64,000 bases of DNA from the IMG/VR virus record IMGVR_UViG_3300029811_000161; one strand, written 5' to 3'. Under the pieces are notes generated by a model, which searched no databases, was not told the DNA's origin, and saw only the letters and a program-made list of their open reading frames with translations. This DNA is from a virus. Positions 2,510-50,863 of the stretch are shown here, in pieces (within the stretch, counting starts at the first letter, position 1; each line of letters starts with the position of its first letter). The position numbers and the translations under genes are program-made.

Positions 2510-2528
2510 CAAACCTTTAAGTACCGTG
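2510..2528 (+). promoter_or_regulatory. Conserved promoter motif CAAACCTTTAAGTACCGTG
   Basis: Identical 19-mer on the minus strand at 26639-26657; near copy at 21061-21076; TATA-like TTTAAGTA core. Confidence 0.65.
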
Positions 2529-5079: not shown

Positions 5080-6012
5080 ATGATCTTGCTTTTGATATGC
5101 CCAATCGCATCGGCAGATCTCGACGGATCGACCGTAGGCGCAAGGATGGTGCAGAAGGGATTGGAGTTTTTCATGTGTGGACTCGCGGATGGTCTGTATG
5201 AAATTGGATATCGCCCCCCCGGACATAACGGAACAATGAACGGAACCACGACGGAGATGTACATCTATGAATTGAATACACACACTTATGATCCGTTCAA
5301 GCACGACACGGTGAACGCTTTCAGGGGAATGTGTTTTATTGTGCTCGTCGTCGCAGCAGTGCTGTATGCGGCGATCGGCGGGATGTATGTGATAGCGTGT
5401 GTGGTCGGAGCGGCGACCGTGGTCGATGGCGTTCTTAATCGCAGTTCATCATATCGGACGATGAGGATCAAGGAGTATTTCGAGAATCTGGCGGTTGCCA
5501 TAGGTGTGATAGCATTCACCGATCTGTATATCATCGCAATACTTATGATAAACTTTCTGATCGTGTCATTCTTGATGGTAGGGCTGATAACTACCACACC
5601 GATCGCAACATTCCAAGACAATGGTTGGTTGTACCTGTCGATGGCGGTAGCATACGTCACCGAGTTCGGGTTCATGATTGCCCGGGCGATACTCATATTC
5701 ATGTTCGCAGCATCGGGGCGACTGATCGGGGTGCTTCTAATCCCGAACAAAACACGGTCGTTCGGGATGTCGATTGTGTATTACCTCACTGGCATAGTGT
5801 TTCTACAAACTGTGCTCGTTGGAATCACAACGGTTGGATACATCGCCATCGACGCGATAGCGAAAGACAACTCGGTCATGCCCGGCTCTCCAGTCGAGGG
5901 ACTCATGTACTGCGTGCTAATCGTAATCCTGATCGTTGCGTCACTCCTGATCATGGTGGGGCTTGTCAGAATGAAGAGCACGGTGATGACAACAGTCAAA
6001 ATGGTGATATAA
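5080..6012 (+). CDS. VirB6/TrbL-like polytopic membrane protein
   Basis: About 6-7 hydrophobic segments; position in the VirB4 operon. Confidence 0.6.
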   Translation: MILLLICPIASADLDGSTVGARMVQKGLEFFMCGLADGLYEIGYRPPGHNGTMNGTTTEMYIYELNTHTYDPFKHDTVNAFRGMCFIVLVVAAVLYAAIGGMYVIACVVGAATVVDGVLNRSSSYRTMRIKEYFENLAVAIGVIAFTDLYIIAILMINFLIVSFLMVGLITTTPIATFQDNGWLYLSMAVAYVTEFGFMIARAILIFMFAASGRLIGVLLIPNKTRSFGMSIVYYLTGIVFLQTVLVGITTVGYIAIDAIAKDNSVMPGSPVEGLMYCVLIVILIVASLLIMVGLVRMKSTVMTTVKMVI

Positions 6013-11886: not shown

Positions 11887-12354
11887 ATGAAATTGATGAT
11901 AACAGGTCACCGGCCAAATCGGCTCGGTGGATATAGGATGGATTCGGCAACAGTGAAGTCCATCGATGCTGAGTTACGCAAGATCGTGTCGGCACTTGAT
12001 CCAGACACAGACATTGGCATCTGTGGAATGGCTCAAGGAGTCGATCAAATGTTTGCCGAGATCTGCATGGAATTCGGAATTCCGGTACACGCGTACGTCC
12101 CTTTCTATGGACAGGAAATGAAATGGCCAGCCAGTGCCAAGTCTGCATATCGGTCACTGCTTCATCGATGCGATGATGTTGTGATTTGTTCAGATCATCC
12201 ATCGAAAGATGCGTTTCTGGTCAGGAATGCAACGATGGTAAAGGATTGTGACTCGGCAGTCGCGGTCTGGGACGGAAGATCAAGGTCAGGCACCGGTGCT
12301 ACGGTATCGATGATCAAGATTTCCGGGAAAGACTTGCATGTGATCAGTATTTAG
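11887..12354 (+). CDS. SLOG family (YspA/DUF1273-like) protein
   Basis: ITGHRP, GMAQGVD, RNATMV, AVWDG..SGTG. Confidence 0.85.
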   Translation: MKLMITGHRPNRLGGYRMDSATVKSIDAELRKIVSALDPDTDIGICGMAQGVDQMFAEICMEFGIPVHAYVPFYGQEMKWPASAKSAYRSLLHRCDDVVICSDHPSKDAFLVRNATMVKDCDSAVAVWDGRSRSGTGATVSMIKISGKDLHVISI

Positions 12355-12677: not shown

Positions 12678-14034
12678 ATGGCGACATGGAAACGTAAGAA
12701 ATCAGATACTGAGACGACACTGAAGATCGAAACCTGCCACGACTCAACGAATGTAACGATCTCAAGCACATCGTTGGAAACCGGGAAAAGGTTTGCATGG
12801 GATACTATCAATATCCCACTCGAAACGCTGAAGGAAATGGTGAATGCACAATGACTGAAATCACAATCGGTGATCACGTATCGATCCCTTCCCACGCCAG
12901 AGGAACGGTGTGGGAATCGGGATGGGTGCAGGACATCGACCAACGAGGTGCTCTGATCAAGTACGGAGCACGAGGAGACACTGGACTGTATGGGACTGGA
13001 CGGTATGTGCCGCTCGGTGAACTTGTGAAACTGGAGGGCTGAGATCATGGCACTTGAAATGACCAGAAACCGGCTGAAACATCTTGCCAAGTTTAACGGC
13101 GAGATAACAATCGAAGGCGAATATCAAAACGAGATCGTTGTACGGATCTCATTCGGTGACGGAACTACGAGCATCTATGCAGAGAAGATCTACAACAATC
13201 TTCTCGACATCGAAGATGAACGATGTGAGAATTGCGGGCGATACTGCCCAGAGGGACTCAACGATGGTCTCTGCGAAGACTGCTGGAAGTAGGGAGGACT
13301 GAGATCATGACCAAGATAATCTGCAAGAAATGCGGCAAGGAAACCGCCGTAAACACGCAGCGTAACGTCGCTGCCTGCAAGAACGTGGAATGCGACAACT
13401 ACAACACATTCTACACGATCGGAACAGAAGGTTTCGATAGACGATATTGGGAGGTGTAGCATGATACAAGAGATACAGCGAAAAATCGGTGTTGTCCTGT
13501 GGGACTCCGGCATGGATGTCCGCATAAACGGGACAGATCTGGTAGTGATCGATGATGGGCGTGAATTCAAAGTTATCGTCGAGGAGGTGTGATACGATGA
13601 TATTAGCAATGAATCGAAACGAATTGATATGTGATCTCCCGAGAGCGTTTCGGGAGCAAAACGACCTTGCCGCGATGACAGACAAAGCGCTAATCGCTCT
13701 ATGGAAGCGACAAGGAACCCACGCGGGTACGTGGGACTGGGATGACGTCGAAATCACGGAGGTGTGAACGATGACCAAACGAACATTCAAGAAACGAGCA
13801 GACGAAGCAAAGTATCGAGTATCGATGAAGCGCCGGCTAAGGTTAGTCGGCTGCCAATTCGATAACGACGAGACGACTGAGCAACTCGAGGAGATGATGC
13901 GTGTATGCGCTCCCCGGGTCGAGCAGTTCGATGGAGTTGTGGACAGAGCAAGTGATCACAGCGAGTACCTTGAGTACAAGCGTGAGATCATGGAGAACGA
14001 TGAAAGAAGCACAAAGGAGGAACCATGCCAATAA
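12678..14034 (+). other. Run of tightly packed small early-type ORFs (12678-12854, 12851-13042, 13047-13292, 13307-13459 Zn finger, ~13460-13590, 13603-13767, 13771-14034)
   Basis: Each preceded by GAGG/GGTGA SD with 0-15 nt spacing or overlap; several CxxC pairs. Confidence 0.7.
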
Positions 14035-14372
14035 CAGGAGATAAGCTGCCTGCCAAAGTAGATCGGATGGCGGAGATAGCTAAGAAGCTGCCGGACGGTT
14101 GGTTCGGCAGAGCAGTACTTGAAAAGGCGATCCGGAGCGCCGGGGAGCCTAAAATCAGGTCACGTCAAGCCGTGGACAACTACGTTGGCGAGATGCTACT
14201 TGCTGGATACACCGAGCAGCCGACGCCCAGGAAGTTCAGGCTGACAGATCGAGCGATGGAGACTGGAGAGATTCGGATACACGTCGATCCAGCGATACGG
14301 GTTCCGGAAGTGCGAGTGCTGATCGAGAAGGCACTCGCCAAGATCGATTACGTGAGCATCGAGGAGGTGTGA
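14025..14372 (+). CDS. Winged-helix-like protein
   Basis: Helical N-terminus, VDNYVGEMLLAGY..PTPRKFRLT wing-like pattern. Confidence 0.55.
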   Translation: MPITGDKLPAKVDRMAEIAKKLPDGWFGRAVLEKAIRSAGEPKIRSRQAVDNYVGEMLLAGYTEQPTPRKFRLTDRAMETGEIRIHVDPAIRVPEVRVLIEKALAKIDYVSIEEV

Positions 14373-18026: not shown

Positions 18027-18230
18027 ATGACACAAAGTAAAAACCCGTGGTTGAAAGGACCAATATTGGATTACATACGTGCAAATGATGGGAAAGTCGA
18101 TTCAATCGATGTCTGGGGGCACTTCAAACTGACACCAGATATCACTTTCCCGGAAGTACACGCGCTTGAATCAGAAGGAAAAATCCGGCGACTGACATGG
18201 GGAAATCGTCATGTCTTCGAGGTGGTTTGA
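18027..18230 (+). CDS. Small winged-helix protein
   Basis: ILDYIRANDG...LESEGKIRR; GGTGA SD supports start at 18027. Confidence 0.6.
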   Translation: MTQSKNPWLKGPILDYIRANDGKVDSIDVWGHFKLTPDITFPEVHALESEGKIRRLTWGNRHVFEVV

Positions 18231-19267
18231 TGCCAGCAAGACAATTCGCATGGCAGACACCAGAAGGAAAGTTCCACCGAGGCAGCAAGCCGATGGAGAC
18301 CGATGAGCAGATGCGGATGGCGGTAAAGCATCACTGGAACGGTGCTTGCTATCAGAGCGTGTATGCGTTCGAGGAATGGAAGGACGGTAGACCAGTGAAA
18401 GAGTCAGCGATCATCAAGGATATATTCTTCGACTTCGATGACGCGGAGAATCCACAAAACGCCATCGATGACGCTGCTAAAATCGCTTGCGATCACACTA
18501 CGCAGTGGTTCAGCGGAAAGAAAGGAATCGGGATGTTGGTTCACATCAACCCCGTGGATATCCACCCATCGATGAAAGCTGCTGTGCTTAAGCGGACGTG
18601 TAACGCGATGATTGAGAACTTTGATCTACAAACCGCGGATACTGCAGTGATCGGTGATCTGAACCGGGTATGCGGGATACCAAACACGCGACATCCAAAT
18701 GGACTATACCGGATTCCACTTGCACCGATTGAGTTGAGACACTTCCCGATTGACACGATTCGAGAGATGGCGAAGAACACGCGGGGCTTGGTGACCAATG
18801 TAACCCCATCGGAGATACACACCGACTATATGTTCATCGTTGAGAGAACGATCATCAAGGCACGGATGGAACAACTCATCAAACGTCGCATGTTATCGTG
18901 GAAATTCTACGAAGATCATCAAATAATACGATCCGTCGAGGAGAAATATGCCCTCGTTGCGACACTTGAATACATCGAAGCAGAAGCACGAAGGATCGAG
19001 GCAAAGAACACCCCAAGGACTGAAACAACGAACCAGTGGCTTGCAGAAGCCGAGGAAACGCTGTTAACTCGTGGGCAGCTAACCAACGGCAGAGACCGAG
19101 GCGAGGAGCACAAAGCCAGGGTGCACTTTTGCAAGTATGCCCACGAATGCGGCTGGACGTTCAAGCAGATCTGCGGGGCGTTTGTCAACATCGTTGATCG
19201 GAATGGAAAGCGATGCTACGACAAGAAGATGACTGAGGATCAAGTTAGGAGCTGCATAGGGAGGTGA
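18230..19267 (+). CDS. Archaeo-eukaryotic primase (AEP) with C-terminal helical domain
   Basis: DIFFDFDD (motif I), FSGKKG (motif II), DLNRVCGIPNTRH (motif III). Confidence 0.85.
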   Translation: MPARQFAWQTPEGKFHRGSKPMETDEQMRMAVKHHWNGACYQSVYAFEEWKDGRPVKESAIIKDIFFDFDDAENPQNAIDDAAKIACDHTTQWFSGKKGIGMLVHINPVDIHPSMKAAVLKRTCNAMIENFDLQTADTAVIGDLNRVCGIPNTRHPNGLYRIPLAPIELRHFPIDTIREMAKNTRGLVTNVTPSEIHTDYMFIVERTIIKARMEQLIKRRMLSWKFYEDHQIIRSVEEKYALVATLEYIEAEARRIEAKNTPRTETTNQWLAEAEETLLTRGQLTNGRDRGEEHKARVHFCKYAHECGWTFKQICGAFVNIVDRNGKRCYDKKMTEDQVRSCIGR

Positions 19268-20760: not shown

Positions 20761-21060
20761 CCGGGTCTTGGTCTCTTAATTTTTTTGGAGAAAATCGAGG
20801 CTACTCAGAAGCCCACAGAGCCACGATCTCAACCCAACCCACACACTACCATTCACAAAGAACAAACCGGAGCACACAGAGCGACAGAAGGCTTTAAGTA
20901 CAACGCCATCGATGGATGTTATTGTCTTCGTATGACACTCCTGATCGTGGCAGGCTAACCCCCAACACAGTCCTCCCGACTCCACAACTGCCACGACACT
21001 GCCGGCGCTTCAAAATCCGTTCGCAAACTCTTTTACAGCGCCGGTACAAGACCCTGAGTG

Positions 21061-21076
21061 CAAACCCTTAAGTACC
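21061..21076 (+). promoter_or_regulatory. Copy of conserved promoter motif (CAAACCCTTAAGTACC)
   Basis: 15/16 match to 2510-2525. Confidence 0.55.
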
Positions 21077-21334
21077 ACACAACACAAGAACTTACTGTTT
21101 CACCAAGCCTCACATCCCAAGCGGCACCGAGGGTTTACCTGTTCCTCCCGGTGCCGCCATCAAAAGCTACACCCGCAGCCGATGCTGGTTATATTTTACA
21201 CCAAGAGCGAATAGACCAAAACAACCGCATCGACGAGTGCGATTCATTTGTTTGTATACAAATCAAATTCATGATTTTTGGGTTCACTGGTACTAAATAG
21301 TTAATAGGGGTAATGGAAAAATAGACCTAAACCA

Positions 21335-21682
21335 ATGACCCTAAACTACGACCCGCCTGGAAAACCAACGCCAGCCGAACAAATACGCCAAGAAAGAGAA
21401 CTGATGGCGATACCACGGAATCTGACAAACAAACAAAAGTCCTGCCCAATCAAATCATCGCTACCTCCGAGCTACGCTGCAATCCTTGGTCCATGCATCG
21501 AGTACGCATATCGAAAAGTGATACAAGAGCCGGAACCACACCGATTAATCAGCCGCAAAACAGAGTATATGTTCGTTCAGAGGGCAGTAAAAGAATATAT
21601 GAACGCTATAGTGTTAGATGCACGCCAAAACGGCGTGTATATAGGACTGAAAGAGGAAAACCCCGATAATACAGACCCCTAA
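21335..21682 (+). CDS. Hypothetical protein, possible RHH-like C-terminus
   Basis: 115-aa isolated ORF; YMFVQRAVKEYM helix. Confidence 0.6.
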   Translation: MTLNYDPPGKPTPAEQIRQERELMAIPRNLTNKQKSCPIKSSLPPSYAAILGPCIEYAYRKVIQEPEPHRLISRKTEYMFVQRAVKEYMNAIVLDARQNGVYIGLKEENPDNTDP

Positions 21683-21991
21683 CCCTTAAGAAGCGATACG
21701 CCTCCTTCTTTAATCAGCCTAATTGCTACCCTTCACCTAAATTAGTGCTTACTGTACCTGTTTCTACAATAGTCACCATGTAGAATCGTGTACAATCATT
21801 GAGAATCATGTACAATCTTTTGGACTCCAATTCTCCCCGCGTGTAAGCTACAAACACGCTTGACTTGATAGTTGACTATGCCTCAGCCATCAAGTCCTCT
21901 CAGATCGCATGAGATTCGATCCTCAAGCGAATCCTGAGCACATCTGCAACCACATCGTGAGCAAACCCAACATCATCATCGATGCGGTCGT

Positions 21992-22147
21992 TCAACCATG
22001 CTTGTTAGCTGCCAACTCTAACGGACACGGCTCGTATGGCTCATCAAACACAATCGACCCAGTCAACACACATTCATCAAAATACCCACCAGTGACTAAC
22101 TTGCGTTGAATCAGATACTCACAACCATCACATTTTTTCGACATCAT
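21992..22147 (-). CDS. Small Cys-rich protein
   Basis: MMSKKCDGCEY...ECVLTG...PCP; GGTGA SD places the start at 22147, not 22312. Confidence 0.55.
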   Translation of the reverse strand: MMSKKCDGCEYLIQRKLVTGGYFDECVLTGSIVFDEPYEPCPLELAANKHG

Positions 22148-22249
22148 AATCACCAATCGATCAGTGCGCTTACAACCATGTAAAACCATCGATGCGGTCA
22201 TTCCTTCTCGCCAAATTCGAGCATAATTTTTCCCCTGGTCTCGGTACAC

Positions 22250-22540
22250 GTCCGGCATCATGGAAAAGAACCTTGAAGTACGTGACTGCTTTTCCATGCC
22301 GCAGGACTTCACCCCGGGCGCCTACACCCACGGCAGTCAGCCCCAGTACGCAACCATTGCCACCGCAAGTCCCGACAACGTCCGGCAATCAGACGCAGAA
22401 GTTTGAAGTACGTGACTGCTGCGTCTAATCACCAGACAACACCACGGGTGGGTAGACCACAACAGGTCTGTTCCTACGCAACAACAACCACCACACGGGT
22501 CAAAACATTAACAAACAAACGTCCGGCATTACAGCCAGAC
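22250..22540 (-). ncRNA. Candidate structured RNA: repeated stem-loops with conserved 20-nt loop
   Basis: Two 58-nt units (22250-22307, 22380-22437) with 19-bp stems of different inner sequence, shared loop; G-U pairs favour the minus strand; third short hairpin 22521-22540. Confidence 0.65.
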
Positions 22541-22725
22541 AACAACCCCAAACAACCTCAATCGAGACGATTGTTCAATTCCTTCAGTGCCTTCTCCATC
22601 GCTTTTCGTTCCAAAACACACGAACCACGATATCCATCCTCATCCACATCAAGCGCTGCACATAATTCATACTCAATTTTTGCATCGACATAATCAACGA
22701 TCGCTTTAACCTCGTTTGGTTTCAT

Positions 22726-23323
22726 TCAAATCACCTTCTCGACACTGGTAACCTTGCCATCCCGATCCACAAATGCCCTATACTCAACATCACCTGGTGT
22801 AATCACGGAGCATACATTGCACACAACATCGAATCCACCTCCAACCGGTTCTATGCTGTGCGCCTGAAATCCCATGACCGGGCACACCCCGGCTATTCCC
22901 TCGAAATACTCACGAACTTTGATCGCTGCTTGTGTAGCATCCAATTTAATCACCTCTCATCGATGGTCTTTTTGATTTCATCGATTGGATATTCATCTAC
23001 TTCGAGGTTGTAAACCCCAAAGCAAAGTGTATCGATGACATCATTAACCACCTTTCGATCGCCATGGATTGTTATCTGCACAGGACTGGACACCCCATCG
23101 TCTGTATCAACACGAAGATCGAAAACTCGTTCTATTTCATCCATTTCAATATCACCTCTCATCGACGGTTATACAATCCTCTCAACTTCTTTCGCTCAAT
23201 CTCAAGCTCCTTGGTCTGTGCCTGCAATGCCATGCTCACACTCGGCGATGCGTCTTTGATCTGCTTATGGAGTTCTTGGATCTCATCAGCGATCTCAACG
23301 ATGCGGTTGTGTATGAAACTCAT
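22726..23323 (-). other. Three small ORFs (22726-22953, 22950-~23144, 23159-23323 coiled coil)
   Basis: SD-coupled minus-strand ORFs. Confidence 0.65.
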
Positions 23324-23329
23324 CGTTGA

Positions 23330-23479
23330 TCACCACATCCGCACAAACATGAACCCGACCACAAACGAAAGGACACAGCAGAGCCAAAACCAAACCGCTC
23401 GGCTTTTCCTACCATCATCGTAACCATCATGGTAGCCATCCCAATATGCGATCTGTTTTGTTTCCCATTTATCATCCAT
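23330..23479 (-). CDS. Single-pass membrane microprotein, 49 aa
   Basis: MDDKWETKQIAYWDGYHDGYDDGRKSRAVWFWLCCVLSFVVGFMFVRMW. Confidence 0.65.
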   Translation of the reverse strand: MDDKWETKQIAYWDGYHDGYDDGRKSRAVWFWLCCVLSFVVGFMFVRMW

Positions 23480-23485
23480 CGATGG

Positions 23486-23614
23486 TCACCACCAACATCT
23501 GCATATCAACCAACCAGTCACATTACCAAGCAGAAACCCAGCGACTCCAACGGCAAAGATGATCATGCGCACCCATCCTTCATCGATTAGACTGGTCAGT
23601 TCTTTATCATCCAT
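23486..23614 (-). CDS. Single-pass membrane microprotein, 42 aa
   Basis: MDDKELTSLIDEGWVRMIIFAVGVAGFLLGNVTGWLICRCWW. Confidence 0.6.
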   Translation of the reverse strand: MDDKELTSLIDEGWVRMIIFAVGVAGFLLGNVTGWLICRCWW

Positions 23615-23620
23615 CGATGG

Positions 23621-23800
23621 TCACCACATATACCCAACAGTGAAGCCTGCGCCAAGCATGGCAATACCAACGAACACAAGCCAGTAAAACCATATTCGTT
23701 CATCATGGCATCCTTCCACATAACCAATTTTAACACCATCGAGGTGACCATCCCAATAACAAGCCGCTTGTTGCTGTTCTTCACATTCTTTCAAAGACAT
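23621..23800 (-). CDS. Single-pass membrane microprotein, 59 aa
   Basis: MSLKECEEQQQAACYWDGHLDGVKIGYVEGCHDERIWFYWLVFVGIAMLGAGFTVGYMW. Confidence 0.65.
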   Translation of the reverse strand: MSLKECEEQQQAACYWDGHLDGVKIGYVEGCHDERIWFYWLVFVGIAMLGAGFTVGYMW

Positions 23801-24040
23801 TCAATCACCACGCTCCTCGATTATTTTGGCTATCTCCTTCATCCTAACATCCGGACTGCGTTCCAAACCATGATCCCAAGCCTCAACAACATCGATGATC
23901 TTATCCAACGCCACGGAATCAATCGCAAGCCGCTCGTTCTCATGCTGGAGACGCACAACACCAACACTTTCCACGAAAACATCATGCACAACATCATCGA
24001 TGGTCTGTCCTTCCTCATCAACATGGATTATTATCTTCAT
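23801..24040 (-). CDS. Hypothetical acidic protein
   Basis: 79 aa, GGAG SD. Confidence 0.6.
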   Translation of the reverse strand: MKIIIHVDEEGQTIDDVVHDVFVESVGVVRLQHENERLAIDSVALDKIIDVVEAWDHGLERSPDVRMKEIAKIIEERGD

Positions 24041-26638: not shown

Positions 26639-26657
26639 CACGGTACTTAAAGGTTTG
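26639..26657 (-). promoter_or_regulatory. Copy of conserved promoter motif
   Basis: Reverse complement identical to 2510-2528. Confidence 0.65.
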
Positions 26658-31030: not shown

Positions 31031-31249
31031 ATGAAATGCGTACACTGCAACTCAACGTTTTATGCTGATGTCGAGCTTAACGCGTGGGATGCGTGCCCGA
31101 TATGCAGCAAGCGGATGCTTGGCTTCAAGGATGACGCGCTTGACTTTGGTGTCGAGGTGCTGTTACAGGATGTAAAGGCTATCGAGAAGAAGCTCTACTT
31201 GTTCAGAGAGCGATTGCGGCAAAATCGGAGTGATCAAGATGAAACTTGA
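31031..31249 (+). CDS. Zn-ribbon plus coiled-coil protein
   Basis: CVHC...CPIC. Confidence 0.65.
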   Translation: MKCVHCNSTFYADVELNAWDACPICSKRMLGFKDDALDFGVEVLLQDVKAIEKKLYLFRERLRQNRSDQDET

Positions 31250-31808
31250 ACGAGCGCAGAGGATTGCAGAATCGTTGAAGCACGACCTCGAACCATTCTG
31301 TCACCGAATCGAGATTGGTGGTTCAATTCGGCGAAAGAAGCCAGAAGTGAAAGACATCGAACTTGTGTGCATTCCAAAGTTCGGCGACTACCCGACCGGT
31401 CAGATGTCTTTGGAAGGCGATCCACTAACAAGCTACGAGAACCTGTTATTCGAGCACATCGCAGCGAACCGCGATGATAAGTACGGAATTCACAAGATGG
31501 GTGATAAGTATGCACAGATTGAAGTACACCATGATCATGCAACCGGGGTCAGACAATACATCAAGGTCGATGTCTTCACAGCAACGCAGGAAACATGGGG
31601 ATACATCTTCATGATCCGAACCGGACCCGCTGAGTTCTCGAAGTGGGTCGTGACTGAACTAAAACGGAAGGGATACGTACCGAAAGATGGCGCGGTCTGG
31701 TTAGGTGGTAAGCCAATACCAACGAGGGATGAAACCGATGTGTTCCACCTGCTTCAGATCTCTGATATTTACCCAGAATACCGATTTAAGGACGTGATGT
31801 GGAAATGA
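31239..31808 (+). CDS. polX: Minimal family X DNA polymerase (palm and thumb only)
   Basis: GGSIRRKKPEVKDIEL, KVDVF, FMIRTGPAEF, ETDVFHLL..P..R. Confidence 0.8.
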   Translation: MKLERAQRIAESLKHDLEPFCHRIEIGGSIRRKKPEVKDIELVCIPKFGDYPTGQMSLEGDPLTSYENLLFEHIAANRDDKYGIHKMGDKYAQIEVHHDHATGVRQYIKVDVFTATQETWGYIFMIRTGPAEFSKWVVTELKRKGYVPKDGAVWLGGKPIPTRDETDVFHLLQISDIYPEYRFKDVMWK

Positions 31809-32247
31809 CCGATTCAGGCGCATATTCAGATGCATGTACCGCATACACCACGGTCGTCGAGATGCTGCCTGCCGATACTGTCGCACAGATCAGCGACATG
31901 ATATCTCGGTCGTGGATATGGGAACCGCCGAAACCATCGCCGGAGATACATGAACCACCATCGATGCCGATGGTTATCGCGCCACACATCCAGACGAGGC
32001 GATGCAAACCGTTCAGCGGGCACAATTTCAGACTCGGTGGGAATAAGGAATGACATCGACGAACGTGTTCGGTGAAAGAATCTGCGACAAAAACTGCCCA
32101 GCATATTTCAACGACGAAGAGTGTCTTGAATTCTGCAACGCAAAGCTTGATCGTATCGGGCGTGTTGGGATGGTTGATGGCGAGGTGCAATACGGGATGC
32201 TGTGCGGCTTGCCAATCGGCTTCAAGATCGTCGTGGACAAAGAATGA
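31805..32247 (+). other. Two small ORFs (31805-32053; 32050-32247 Cys-rich)
   Basis: ATGA overlaps. Confidence 0.6.
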
Positions 32248-32930
32248 TCAAAGAACAAGTCGTGGAACTGACAGTGGATTATCGAGAGGCTCCGAGCGGA
32301 CTTATCGATGAACTTGTGGCTTATGAGTACACGACTTCAACGACACACGTTTCGACGAAAGTGACGACGGCACAACTCCCGGTTGGCGACGTCGTGTGCT
32401 CAGACAGAGTTTGCATCGAAAGGAAATCTTGTGCAGACTTTGTTGACTCGTTCATAAACCGGGATCTTTTCGGGCAGATTGCGGATCTCGCAAGAGCATA
32501 TCAAAAGCCAGTGGTGATTCTTGAGGGCGATTCAGTATTCGGTATTCGCGATGTGCACCCAGAGGCACTCCGGGGAGCCCTGTCGGCAGTTGGTGTTGGT
32601 TGGGGTATTCCTATCATCCCGACGAAGAGCGTTGAGCAGACGGCGTCTATGGCTGTCACGATCGCAAGGAAAGAACAGTTTAAGATGAAACGCTCAGTGT
32701 CGATGCATGGGAAAAGATCATCGATGACGATGCCACAGAGGCAGATCTACGTGGTAAGTTCAATCGGAGAAGGAGTTGGGCCCGTAGTGGCAGAAGCGTT
32801 GCTGAAACATTTCAATTCCATCGAGGCAGTCATGACAGCTTCCATCGATGAACTGATTGAAGTCGAAGGAATCGGGAAGCCAACGGCTGAGAAAATTAGA
32901 ATGATTGTTGGAGGCGAGTATAAGGCATGA
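32244..32930 (+). CDS. ERCC4/XPF (Hef-like) structure-specific nuclease with HhH domain
   Basis: VDYRE, LPVGD, IERKS..DF..S, LEG; HhH GVGP...VEGIGKPTA. Confidence 0.9.
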   Translation: MIKEQVVELTVDYREAPSGLIDELVAYEYTTSTTHVSTKVTTAQLPVGDVVCSDRVCIERKSCADFVDSFINRDLFGQIADLARAYQKPVVILEGDSVFGIRDVHPEALRGALSAVGVGWGIPIIPTKSVEQTASMAVTIARKEQFKMKRSVSMHGKRSSMTMPQRQIYVVSSIGEGVGPVVAEALLKHFNSIEAVMTASIDELIEVEGIGKPTAEKIRMIVGGEYKA

Positions 32931-50143: not shown

Positions 50144-50863
50144 ATGTCATCGATAATGTTTGAGTCTGATCCGAGTGGCGCGACAGTTGAGATCGAGTTA
50201 ATTAGTGGTGGAGTATCGGACTTGGACGTGTTTAGAGCAGAGTGTATGAGTGGTGGCATGGTTGTATGTGATTGGGAAACACTCGAAAGTCGTCTAAATG
50301 ATCATACTGTAAGCACGTTGTGGTGGGAACTGATGGGAAGCGAACGACGTGCAATTGCTGAAATGGCGATCAAGAACACGTTGTTTTACACGATCAGCAA
50401 TTGGAGAGATGGAAAACAATATTGTGCAGGTGGTGAAGGCGATATACATGGTGCCGATTGTCTTCAAAATGCTATGGTGCGGTACTTAAAATTTGGATCT
50501 GATACACCACCATCTCTTGTGGTTGGTGATGGGAGTCCAGGAGGAAGCGCGTGTTATCATCAAAAGACGATGGCAAGCACTGAGTTTTGTTATGTTCCAG
50601 ATATAAAATATAATCTACCATGTAATTTAGTTGGATGTAATGGAGCCAATTATGGACATGCGATGTGTGGGATACGGGTGGTTAAAAACATCGATTCACT
50701 TGATAACTGGATTGTTTTTCAATACACAGATTTTGATATTAAGCCGGGGCACGCACAGATGCCAAATTTCAGGATCGATGATCTATGTGTAACTATTCGC
50801 ACACCATCAGCGATCAAGTGTACTGGGTATTCTTATAAAACCGTTGCAAGCTGGGCGATTTAA
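50144..50863 (+). CDS. Truncated PEGA start plus transglutaminase-like (Cys-His-Asp) domain
   Basis: FESDPSGATVEI; GADCLQNA; YGHAMCG; downstream D/Q. Confidence 0.55.
   Translation: MSSIMFESDPSGATVEIELISGGVSDLDVFRAECMSGGMVVCDWETLESRLNDHTVSTLWWELMGSERRAIAEMAIKNTLFYTISNWRDGKQYCAGGEGDIHGADCLQNAMVRYLKFGSDTPPSLVVGDGSPGGSACYHQKTMASTEFCYVPDIKYNLPCNLVGCNGANYGHAMCGIRVVKNIDSLDNWIVFQYTDFDIKPGHAQMPNFRIDDLCVTIRTPSAIKCTGYSYKTVASWAI

Follow-up and report, generated by a model that had tools for sequence, protein, structure and literature searches.

The window, meaning here the whole analysed stretch of 64,000 nt, comes from a single 66.8-kb JGI metagenome contig. Its genes include those for a VirB4/HerA-like ATPase, RecT, an SF2 helicase, and glycan and surface proteins, the VirB4-like ATPase being part of an operon, and no tRNA gene was found in it. 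The element also encodes a rich DNA-processing set, with an ERCC4-HhH (XPF/Hef-type) structure-specific nuclease, a small protein with a Pol-beta-thumb-like match and a YspA-SLOG protein (genes at 32202–32930, 31230–31808 and 11887–12354). The features of the hairpin locus and its surroundings are as follows.

18197–19267, plus strand: AEP-fold primase of 356 aa, with a catalytic and a C-terminal helical domain (AF2 pLDDT 88)
21335–21682, plus strand: convergent 115-aa gene, coding for the sole neighbour protein conserved in all syntenic array loci (AF2 pLDDT 74)
21992–22201, minus strand: leaderless ORF downstream of the array, coding for 69 aa and rich in Cys; a variable cassette that relative L014 lacks at this place
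22202–22249, minus strand: nearly invariant block directly 3′ of unit a, almost invariant in eight loci (alignment A3)
22223–22231, minus strand: A/T-rich TATA-like box, some 26 nt upstream of the start codon (22201–22199)
22250–22307, minus strand: proximal hairpin (unit a) with a stem of 19 bp and a loop of 20 nt, variant of loop class 1 (covariance model R1, 70.7 bits, E = 4e-16)
22308–22379, minus strand: spacer of 72 nt between units b and a, G+U-rich
about 22310–22320, minus strand: mini-hairpin just 5′ of unit a, 4 bp with a 3-nt loop, showing covariation
22380–22437, minus strand: hairpin unit b, continuous 19-bp stem with four G·U pairs, loop as in unit a (covariance model R1, 78.6 bits)
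22438–22520, minus strand: spacer on the 5′ side of unit b, comprising a conserved block rich in G+U and a U-rich tail after the short hairpin (alignments A3 and A4)
about 22440–22450, minus strand: mini-hairpin in the spacer 5′ of unit b (alignments A3 and A4)
22521–22540, minus strand: short 7-bp hairpin followed by a U-rich run, terminator-like in a terminator scan and resembling a truncated unit
22558–22725, minus strand: 55-aa gene, the last of the upstream minus-strand operon, not conserved in relatives

The hairpins are placed inside a minus-strand block, beginning 17 nt after the stop codon of the 55-aa gene and ending 49 nt before the start of the 69-aa ORF. The intergenic gap of 578 bp proposed by the first-pass annotation is reduced to about 356 nt (22202–22557) once the leaderless ORF is counted as a gene. 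The small genes on either side of the array are variable cassettes that differ between relatives. The 69-aa ORF, which is an insertion relative to L014 (site 13860–13900), is flanked by 17-nt direct repeats (21977–21993 and 22187–22203) containing CATCGATG, and what happened at these CATCGATG-bearing junctions looks like cassette exchange. The block at 22202–22249 is read, from its sequence, as the putative promoter of a leaderless mRNA, and the start-codon column that follows it holds ATG, GTG or TTG depending on the locus (A3).

The primase matched a PHROG primase family and no Pfam family, and its best Foldseek matches were S-2L PrimPol and then RSF1010 RepB′, the latter being a fold-level match only (TM ~0.4). 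The 115-aa protein had no Pfam, PHROG, PDB-sequence or Foldseek match. Its gene is followed by some 300 nt of strongly conserved non-coding sequence (21683–21990), which includes a conserved hairpin with 14-nt arms (12898–12932 in L013) and which, together with the array, makes up a conserved non-coding region of nearly 900 nt. In this convergent zone there are also four tandem 10-bp repeats with the palindrome TGTACA (21777–21817), about 430 nt from the array, that are kept in some relatives (L031 at 1039–1088, and L029; alignment A8) and replaced in others.

Each window unit (a or 1, 22250–22307; b or 2, 22380–22437) was delimited by a repeat finder as an inverted repeat of 58 nt, with 19-nt arms and 20 nt between them, the two unit starts being 130 nt apart, and a 24-nt direct repeat spans both loops. 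On the minus strand, unit b forms 19 continuous pairs, 15 of them Watson-Crick and four G·U, with an RNA minimum free energy (MFE) of –31.6 kcal/mol (z = –7.0), and an equally good fold was found in none of 200 shuffles. Unit a forms 17 of 19 pairs in the register of unit b (16 Watson-Crick, one G·U and two mismatches), with an RNA MFE of –20.8 kcal/mol (z = –2.8), and the short hairpin at 22521–22540 reaches –13.0 kcal/mol (z = –4.6). The plus-strand folds of these hairpins are weaker than the minus-strand ones. The two 20-nt loops match at 18 positions, and the stem base is common to both units and the short hairpin. On the plus strand, a motif of 10–11 nt begins 2 nt before each of the three hairpins, its copies being spaced 130 and 141 nt apart; its 10-nt form has exactly three copies in the whole window, at the hairpins only. 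The loop 17-mer is otherwise unique within the window, where 0.15 matches would be expected with up to 3 mismatches allowed. The alignment of the three repeats revealed that the window units are two copies of a diverged tandem repeat of about 130 nt rather than isolated hairpins. The two phased 58-nt units with 19-bp minus-strand stems, and the 7-bp hairpin sharing their stem base, were recovered in every detail that the first-pass annotation had given.

A lone unit of this kind is no evidence, since hairpins with at least 17 of 19 pairs (G·U allowed, loop of 16–24 nt) occur as often in shuffled sequence: the window has them at three loci, and block-shuffled copies of it have a mean of 3.3. 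The significance of the observation is in two hairpins sharing loop, base and register and, above all, in the relatives. These were reached through two window proteins, the primase and the convergent 115-aa protein, and the metagenomic contigs were then compared; they measure up to 58–67 kb, and at least two of the samples behind them come from a study of South China Sea cold seeps (PMC9357000). By means of a mechanical hairpin scan, the same 19/20/19 geometry (arm, loop, arm) was found in the syntenic gap of every relative and, outside that gap, at another locus of L017, a relative with a primase of only 34% identity to that of the window; the strand was always the one equivalent to the minus strand of the window. 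Sixteen distinct units could be aligned without a gap anywhere (alignment A2), and the covariance model R1 built from them detected 24 units at E < 1e-6 in 12 metagenomic loci, all on one strand. These units comprise about 15 different stem sequences and keep the register, the loop length, the loop core, the wobble position and the spacing, even though some of the elements bearing them have primases only 34–50% identical to that of the window. Short or variant hairpins homologous to the one at 22521–22540 were present in L013, L014, L019, L028, L029 and L030.

Some arrays contain additional sequence. For example, the array of L014 is split by an insertion of about 200 nt that brings an extra short hairpin with the stem base of the family (14074–14092; region 14074–14270), and in L028 (4909–5505) the insertion is a plus-strand gene of 198 aa, which separates the proximal units from the distal unit at 5491–5560 and indicates that the array can be interrupted. 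Other conserved non-coding blocks, at 12050–12360 in L016 and 5720–5900 in L030, include repeated motifs of about 30 nt and are common to distant relatives that lack the array or flank it; several conserved non-coding modules are thus carried by these elements.

Direct searches of sequence collections did not extend the family. The loop 17-mer pattern was found among viral contigs in six contigs of one unrelated virus, without a hairpin and thus by chance, and the combined stem-base and loop pattern was found in metagenome and genome contigs only in coding DNA of high-GC bacteria, also by chance. The promoter-block pattern had no match in viral contigs and blastn of 21000–24000 had none in phages and plasmids; as searched by exact patterns and blastn, the family was not found in the IMG/VR, phage and plasmid collections. 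The neighbour proteins present in the protein collection were all in single-member clusters, a 390-aa neighbour had no relative in viral contigs, and a 75-aa neighbour gave only weak, small matches in an exhaustive search.

The stems of the relatives are almost wholly different in sequence and fold into the same hairpin, which bears out the earlier suggestion of selection on a minus-strand structure around a conserved loop. In A2, which is ungapped and was therefore not fitted to a structure, 95.1% of the stem cells are paired, against 68.2% in column shuffles, with none of 500 shuffles reaching the observed value, and only 40–49% are paired when the 3′ partners are slid by 1–3 columns. Compensatory changes are abundant, with double changes at 16 of the 19 pairs (81 cells), and RNAalifold recovered the same helix independently. 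Moreover, nearly every array has stops in all six frames, the exception being one frame of L028 that stays open over its 193 nt, and so the region is non-coding in relatives as well; this, the compensatory changes and the conservation of a loop core were the points examined on which the earlier reading could have failed, and all three came out in its favour.

The departures from Watson-Crick pairing are informative about the strand. They comprise 44 G·U cells, no A·C cell and 15 others, the latter clustering at pairs 5 and 9, where the recurrent non-canonical cells are single (U·C at pair 5 and A·G at pair 9). Because 44 G·U cells stand against 0 A·C cells, the fold of only one strand is maintained. 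Wobble pairs account for 14.5% of the stem cells and for 40–90% at four positions; 14 of 16 units retain the G·U of pair 8 regardless of the stem sequence around it, and pairs 4, 7 and 11 are wobbles in 40–55% of the units. With RNA parameters, the minus-sense fold is the more stable one in 22 of 24 units (mean MFE –28.7 versus –20.1 kcal/mol), and with DNA parameters the minus strand is favoured in 23 of 24 (mean MFE –13.8 kcal/mol). This structural signal excludes chance, neutral palindromes and models that need both strands to fold, and it fits RNA and single-stranded DNA alike. The G+T richness of the minus sense could, as a mutational or compositional bias, account for part of the G·U excess.

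Beyond the stems, the loop is always 20 nt long, and its conservation is limited to a UUUCAA core in the 3′ half and a few 5′ positions. The proposal of a fixed 20-nt loop was thus correct for its length and core and too broad for the rest, as the family has three loop classes, one of which pairs within itself, and the window stands out among the loci because both its units carry the same loop. Hardly any variation is seen among the 16 units at the closing G-C pair, at the first G-C of the stem or at the GU of the 3′ flank. Arrays consist of two or three units per element, and full units lie exactly 130 nt apart, with a 72-nt spacer in 10 of 10 adjacent pairs. These spacers have a median ungapped identity of about 47%, and such exact spacing in spite of it indicates that spacer length is itself constrained. 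All spacers are rich in G+U, and at the end of each stands a 4-bp mini-hairpin that shows some covariation. At the 5′ side of the array, in the minus sense, there is a truncated or variant unit and then a U-rich run, flagged by the terminator scan; a U run directly after a G+C-rich stem is present at 22521–22540, while the full units have GU and mixed sequence in its place.

As these sequence comparisons show, the hairpins belong to a conserved family of strand-specific modules in a non-coding control region of related mobile elements, which are probably archaeal, of about 58–67 kb and from cold seeps. The data require a single-stranded, minus-sense hairpin that is recognised by a protein. The best reading, to which we would give a probability of roughly 0.45 and which is accordingly tentative, is that of protein-bound RNA hairpins in minus-sense read-through transcripts. 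Transcription from the upstream operon of small genes would run through the array, or in L017 from dedicated upstream promoters, and each unit would fold into a very stable RNA hairpin, in which a protein of the element or of the host might read the core of the loop, the wobble motif, and the base of the stem together with the GU on its 3′ side. The fixed phasing of the units suggests that one multimeric factor may bind two or three of them together. The likely effects would be that the 3′ end of the upstream message is defined and protected (marked, protected or processed) and that the leaderless promoter downstream is insulated from read-through, and the bound hairpins could persist as stable small RNAs.

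RNA is favoured because of the frequent wobbles conserved in position, the co-orientation with transcription and the promoters into the L017 array. Frequent wobble pairs are typical of RNA helices, whereas in DNA they are mismatches. In all syntenic loci the genes to either side point the same way as the array, and L017, the one independent context, has its array at another place, between plus-strand genes, with consensus-type promoters directed into it from 230–350 nt upstream. Against this reading, less transcription would be expected to enter the array past the terminator-like hairpin just upstream of it, and in the window no promoter was recognised between the short hairpin and unit b; nor was any RNA-binding protein identified near the array. 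A simple role as stabiliser or insulator would not require 130-nt phasing or a conserved loop, and the likeness of the plus-strand loop to a promoter hints at a role at the DNA level.

It is quite possible, if not the reading to be preferred, that the hairpins act as signals on a minus strand exposed as single-stranded DNA by origin unwinding, strand-displacement synthesis or T4SS-type transfer, in the manner of ssi-type or stem-loop-origin signals, the AEP primase or a host enzyme starting the complementary strand beside the hairpin. The element has its own stand-alone AEP primase with a helical domain, RSF1010 RepB′ being among its best structural matches, and its VirB4-like ATPase operon would be fitting if the element transfers one strand. 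Moreover, each element has a single array, set in a large non-coding region at a distance of a few kb from the primase gene, and arrays were seen only in contigs recovered via the primase family or the 115-aa gene, although a primase relative of 38% identity, L016, had no array in its 21 kb examined. The nearly invariant stem base, closing G-C pair and 3′ flank correspond to the region that an ssi-reading primase uses, a hairpin is maintained on one DNA strand only, and the units are still stable as DNA, at the energies given above. The frequent and conserved G·T mismatches, some of them in tandem, would on the other hand be costly in DNA helices, all units are on one strand whereas RSF1010-type replication needs one site per strand, and neither the 130-nt phasing nor the conserved G+U-rich spacers are required by such a model.

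The surroundings of the array can be argued in both directions. In the window, the array is near a convergent gene junction in a transcribed block, and not at a divergent, AT-rich, origin-like site. In L017, two units are found in a 1.6-kb gap together with five 32-bp tandem repeats, about 370 nt away, that would stand as iterons, and in L030 an AT-rich tract (27–34% GC) lies about 200 nt from the units; comparison of L017, L030 and the window shows that iterons or AT-rich tracts are not adjacent to the array in all loci. The L017 gap, with features at 1686–1849 and 2590–2730, also contains two tandem promoter modules, each after the same motif of about 20 nt, and its layout is origin-like or control-region-like. 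The stem-loop origin of pRN1 and the ssi sites of RSF1010 offer good precedents for the single-stranded DNA reading (PMC4234260).

The likeness of the loop to a promoter brings in two further explanations. A 14-nt BRE/TATA-like consensus, the strongest promoter motif of the element, is exact at 2511–2524 (plus strand) and at 26643–26656 (minus strand), with the same 4 nt following, the latter site being the start of the minus-strand block; it is near-exact at 21062–21075 and 20888–20901 (plus strand) and 50482–50495 (minus strand), and is also found in distant relatives such as L017. Read on the plus strand, class-1 loops match this 14-mer at 11–12 positions, always with TTGAA where the promoter has TTTAA, and a match of at least 11/14 occurs in about 0.3% of random 28-nt segments. 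The rarity of such a match by chance suggests that the loop is related to the promoter motif by descent or function, whereas the likeness is far lower in loops of classes 2 and 3.

One explanation is that the array works as double-stranded DNA, the 20-bp centre of each unit being a disabled BRE/TATA copy between inverted repeats that binds a promoter-recognising factor or extrudes a cruciform, and thereby regulates the leaderless promoter or organises a phased nucleoprotein complex. The class-1 match, at a chance level of about 0.003, the exact 130-bp phasing and the end of the array 49 nt upstream of the next start site are all consistent with it, and it is nevertheless improbable. Only the fold of one strand is maintained, when a cruciform needs both; the TATA-like core always has the G that should block TBP; the two other loop classes are much less promoter-like; and no single dimeric protein could read the arms, because these differ between units. 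Rather less probable still is that the array serves as a promoter mimic or decoy, in which the loop would show a template-strand copy of the BRE/TATA consensus with one TATA-disabling change and the phased scaffold would capture the host transcription or priming machinery or a promoter-binding factor encoded by the element. Analogues for such a decoy are 6S RNA and the promoters or origins that act as hairpin-form single-stranded DNA, as in mitochondrial OriL and phage N4.

A guide-RNA array, of the TIGR-Tas stem-loop or box C/D type, in which the variable stems or loops would carry the targeting sequence, is very unlikely. Tandem stem-loops with variable but palindromic stems, poorly detected by repeat finders and placed in DNA of phage or archaeal-virus type, do have the look of the second type of TIGR array, and TIGR loci are known in archaeal viruses (PMC12045711). 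However, no Nop-domain protein such as Tas was found by sequence in Pfam scans of 40 window ORFs, whether among those of at least 150 aa or among the neighbours of the array. The TIGR loop has two 8–12-nt spacers flanked by box C/D-like motifs (PMC12045711), and the 20-nt conserved loops seen here are too short for the order box C, spacer, box D′, linker, box C′, spacer, box D; there are neither box C/D motifs nor dual spacers, the stems are continuous without a k-turn bulge, and only two or three units occur, with 72 conserved nt between them. Finally, a neutral tandem duplication without function, whose palindromes arose by chance or template switching, is hardly credible, given that the ordinary frequency of such hairpins in the window, its one point of agreement, has to be set against 24 units in 12 loci with about 15 stems that retain register, loop length, core, wobble and spacing, even in elements whose primases are 34–50% identical.

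The motif family is new, previously undescribed and well supported, with an unusual phased architecture. To our knowledge, hardly any structured nucleic-acid signals have been described from archaeal mobile elements, and the comparative support is in this case unusually clean, with about 15 unrelated stems sharing one geometry, one wobble, one loop core and one 130-nt phase; the motif is also small enough for oligonucleotide tests. If the hairpins act as RNA, they would be a new protein-binding module organising the boundary of a transcription unit in uncultivated cold-seep elements. If they act as single-stranded DNA, a priming or origin signal of a stand-alone AEP primase would for the first time have been defined in elements of this kind, and it would show how these replicate or establish themselves after transfer. 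In both cases, covariance model R1 provides a marker for the element family in metagenomes.

As for known families, the whole window gave no Rfam 15 match at gathering thresholds, the four sub-threshold matches in 21700–22800 (E up to 10) were of snoRNA type and none was on the hairpins, and no description of the motif family was found in the papers searched. Nothing supports the ribozyme-like element that the first-pass annotation had entertained. Several other identities were considered and rejected. A k-turn/L7Ae site or a box C/D sRNA, which would need C and D boxes with tandem sheared G·A pairs beside a 3-nt bulge, is at odds with helices that are continuous and have no bulge, and an integron attC with a stem base that misfits the attC core (R″/L″–L′/R′), with conserved non-coding spacers in place of cassettes and with the failure to find an integrase. 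A pseudoknot between the 5′ half of the loop and the spacer was good in the window and in L029 and inconsistent in other loci (A4, by eye). The likeness to a T-loop or tRNA 3′ half fails at an invariant G where an essential C is needed, that to a CRISPR 5′ handle is on the wrong strand, and TR/VR repeats of a diversity-generating retroelement (DGR) are contradicted by the absence of a reverse transcriptase and by differences that are not adenine-specific. An Frpo-type single-stranded DNA promoter for the downstream genes was ruled out, since the strand of the hairpins is the sense strand of these genes and therefore cannot be their template.

Among the known systems that do bear comparison, bacterial REP/BIME elements and lambda sib-type retroregulators are intercistronic hairpins that end or stabilise the upstream mRNA, and are dispersed and conserved in stem sequence. 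The hairpins described here resemble them in being clustered, stable, imperfect palindromes between co-directional units, with wobbles on the transcribed strand. They differ in having variable stems around a fixed loop core, with one wobble and the spacing also fixed, in occupying a unique locus and in probably belonging to an archaeal host.

The ssiA and ssiB sites of RSF1010, as summarised elsewhere, are signals of about 40 nt on opposite strands, beside 20-bp iterons inside oriV, that are read by RepB′ (PMC4234260). Like them, the units are short hairpins, strand-specific and conserved at the base and in the 3′ flank, in an element whose AEP primase has a catalytic and a helix-bundle domain (compare structure 3h20). 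Unlike them, they lie on one strand, are longer, have 20-nt loops and a 130-nt phasing, and are unrelated in sequence.

The origin of the pRN1 family of Sulfolobus plasmids is a stem-loop conserved in structure and not in sequence, with conserved flanks and a terminator hairpin before it (PMC4234260). All of these traits are shared by the array, together with the AEP prim-pol and the single locus. The pRN1 origin, however, is one hairpin of about 100 nt placed directly after the primase-helicase gene, with no tandem phasing, no loop core and no reported wobble bias towards one strand, whereas the candidate origin of the present elements would consist of two or three 58-nt units in phase, 3 kb from a helicase-less primase and on the opposite strand.
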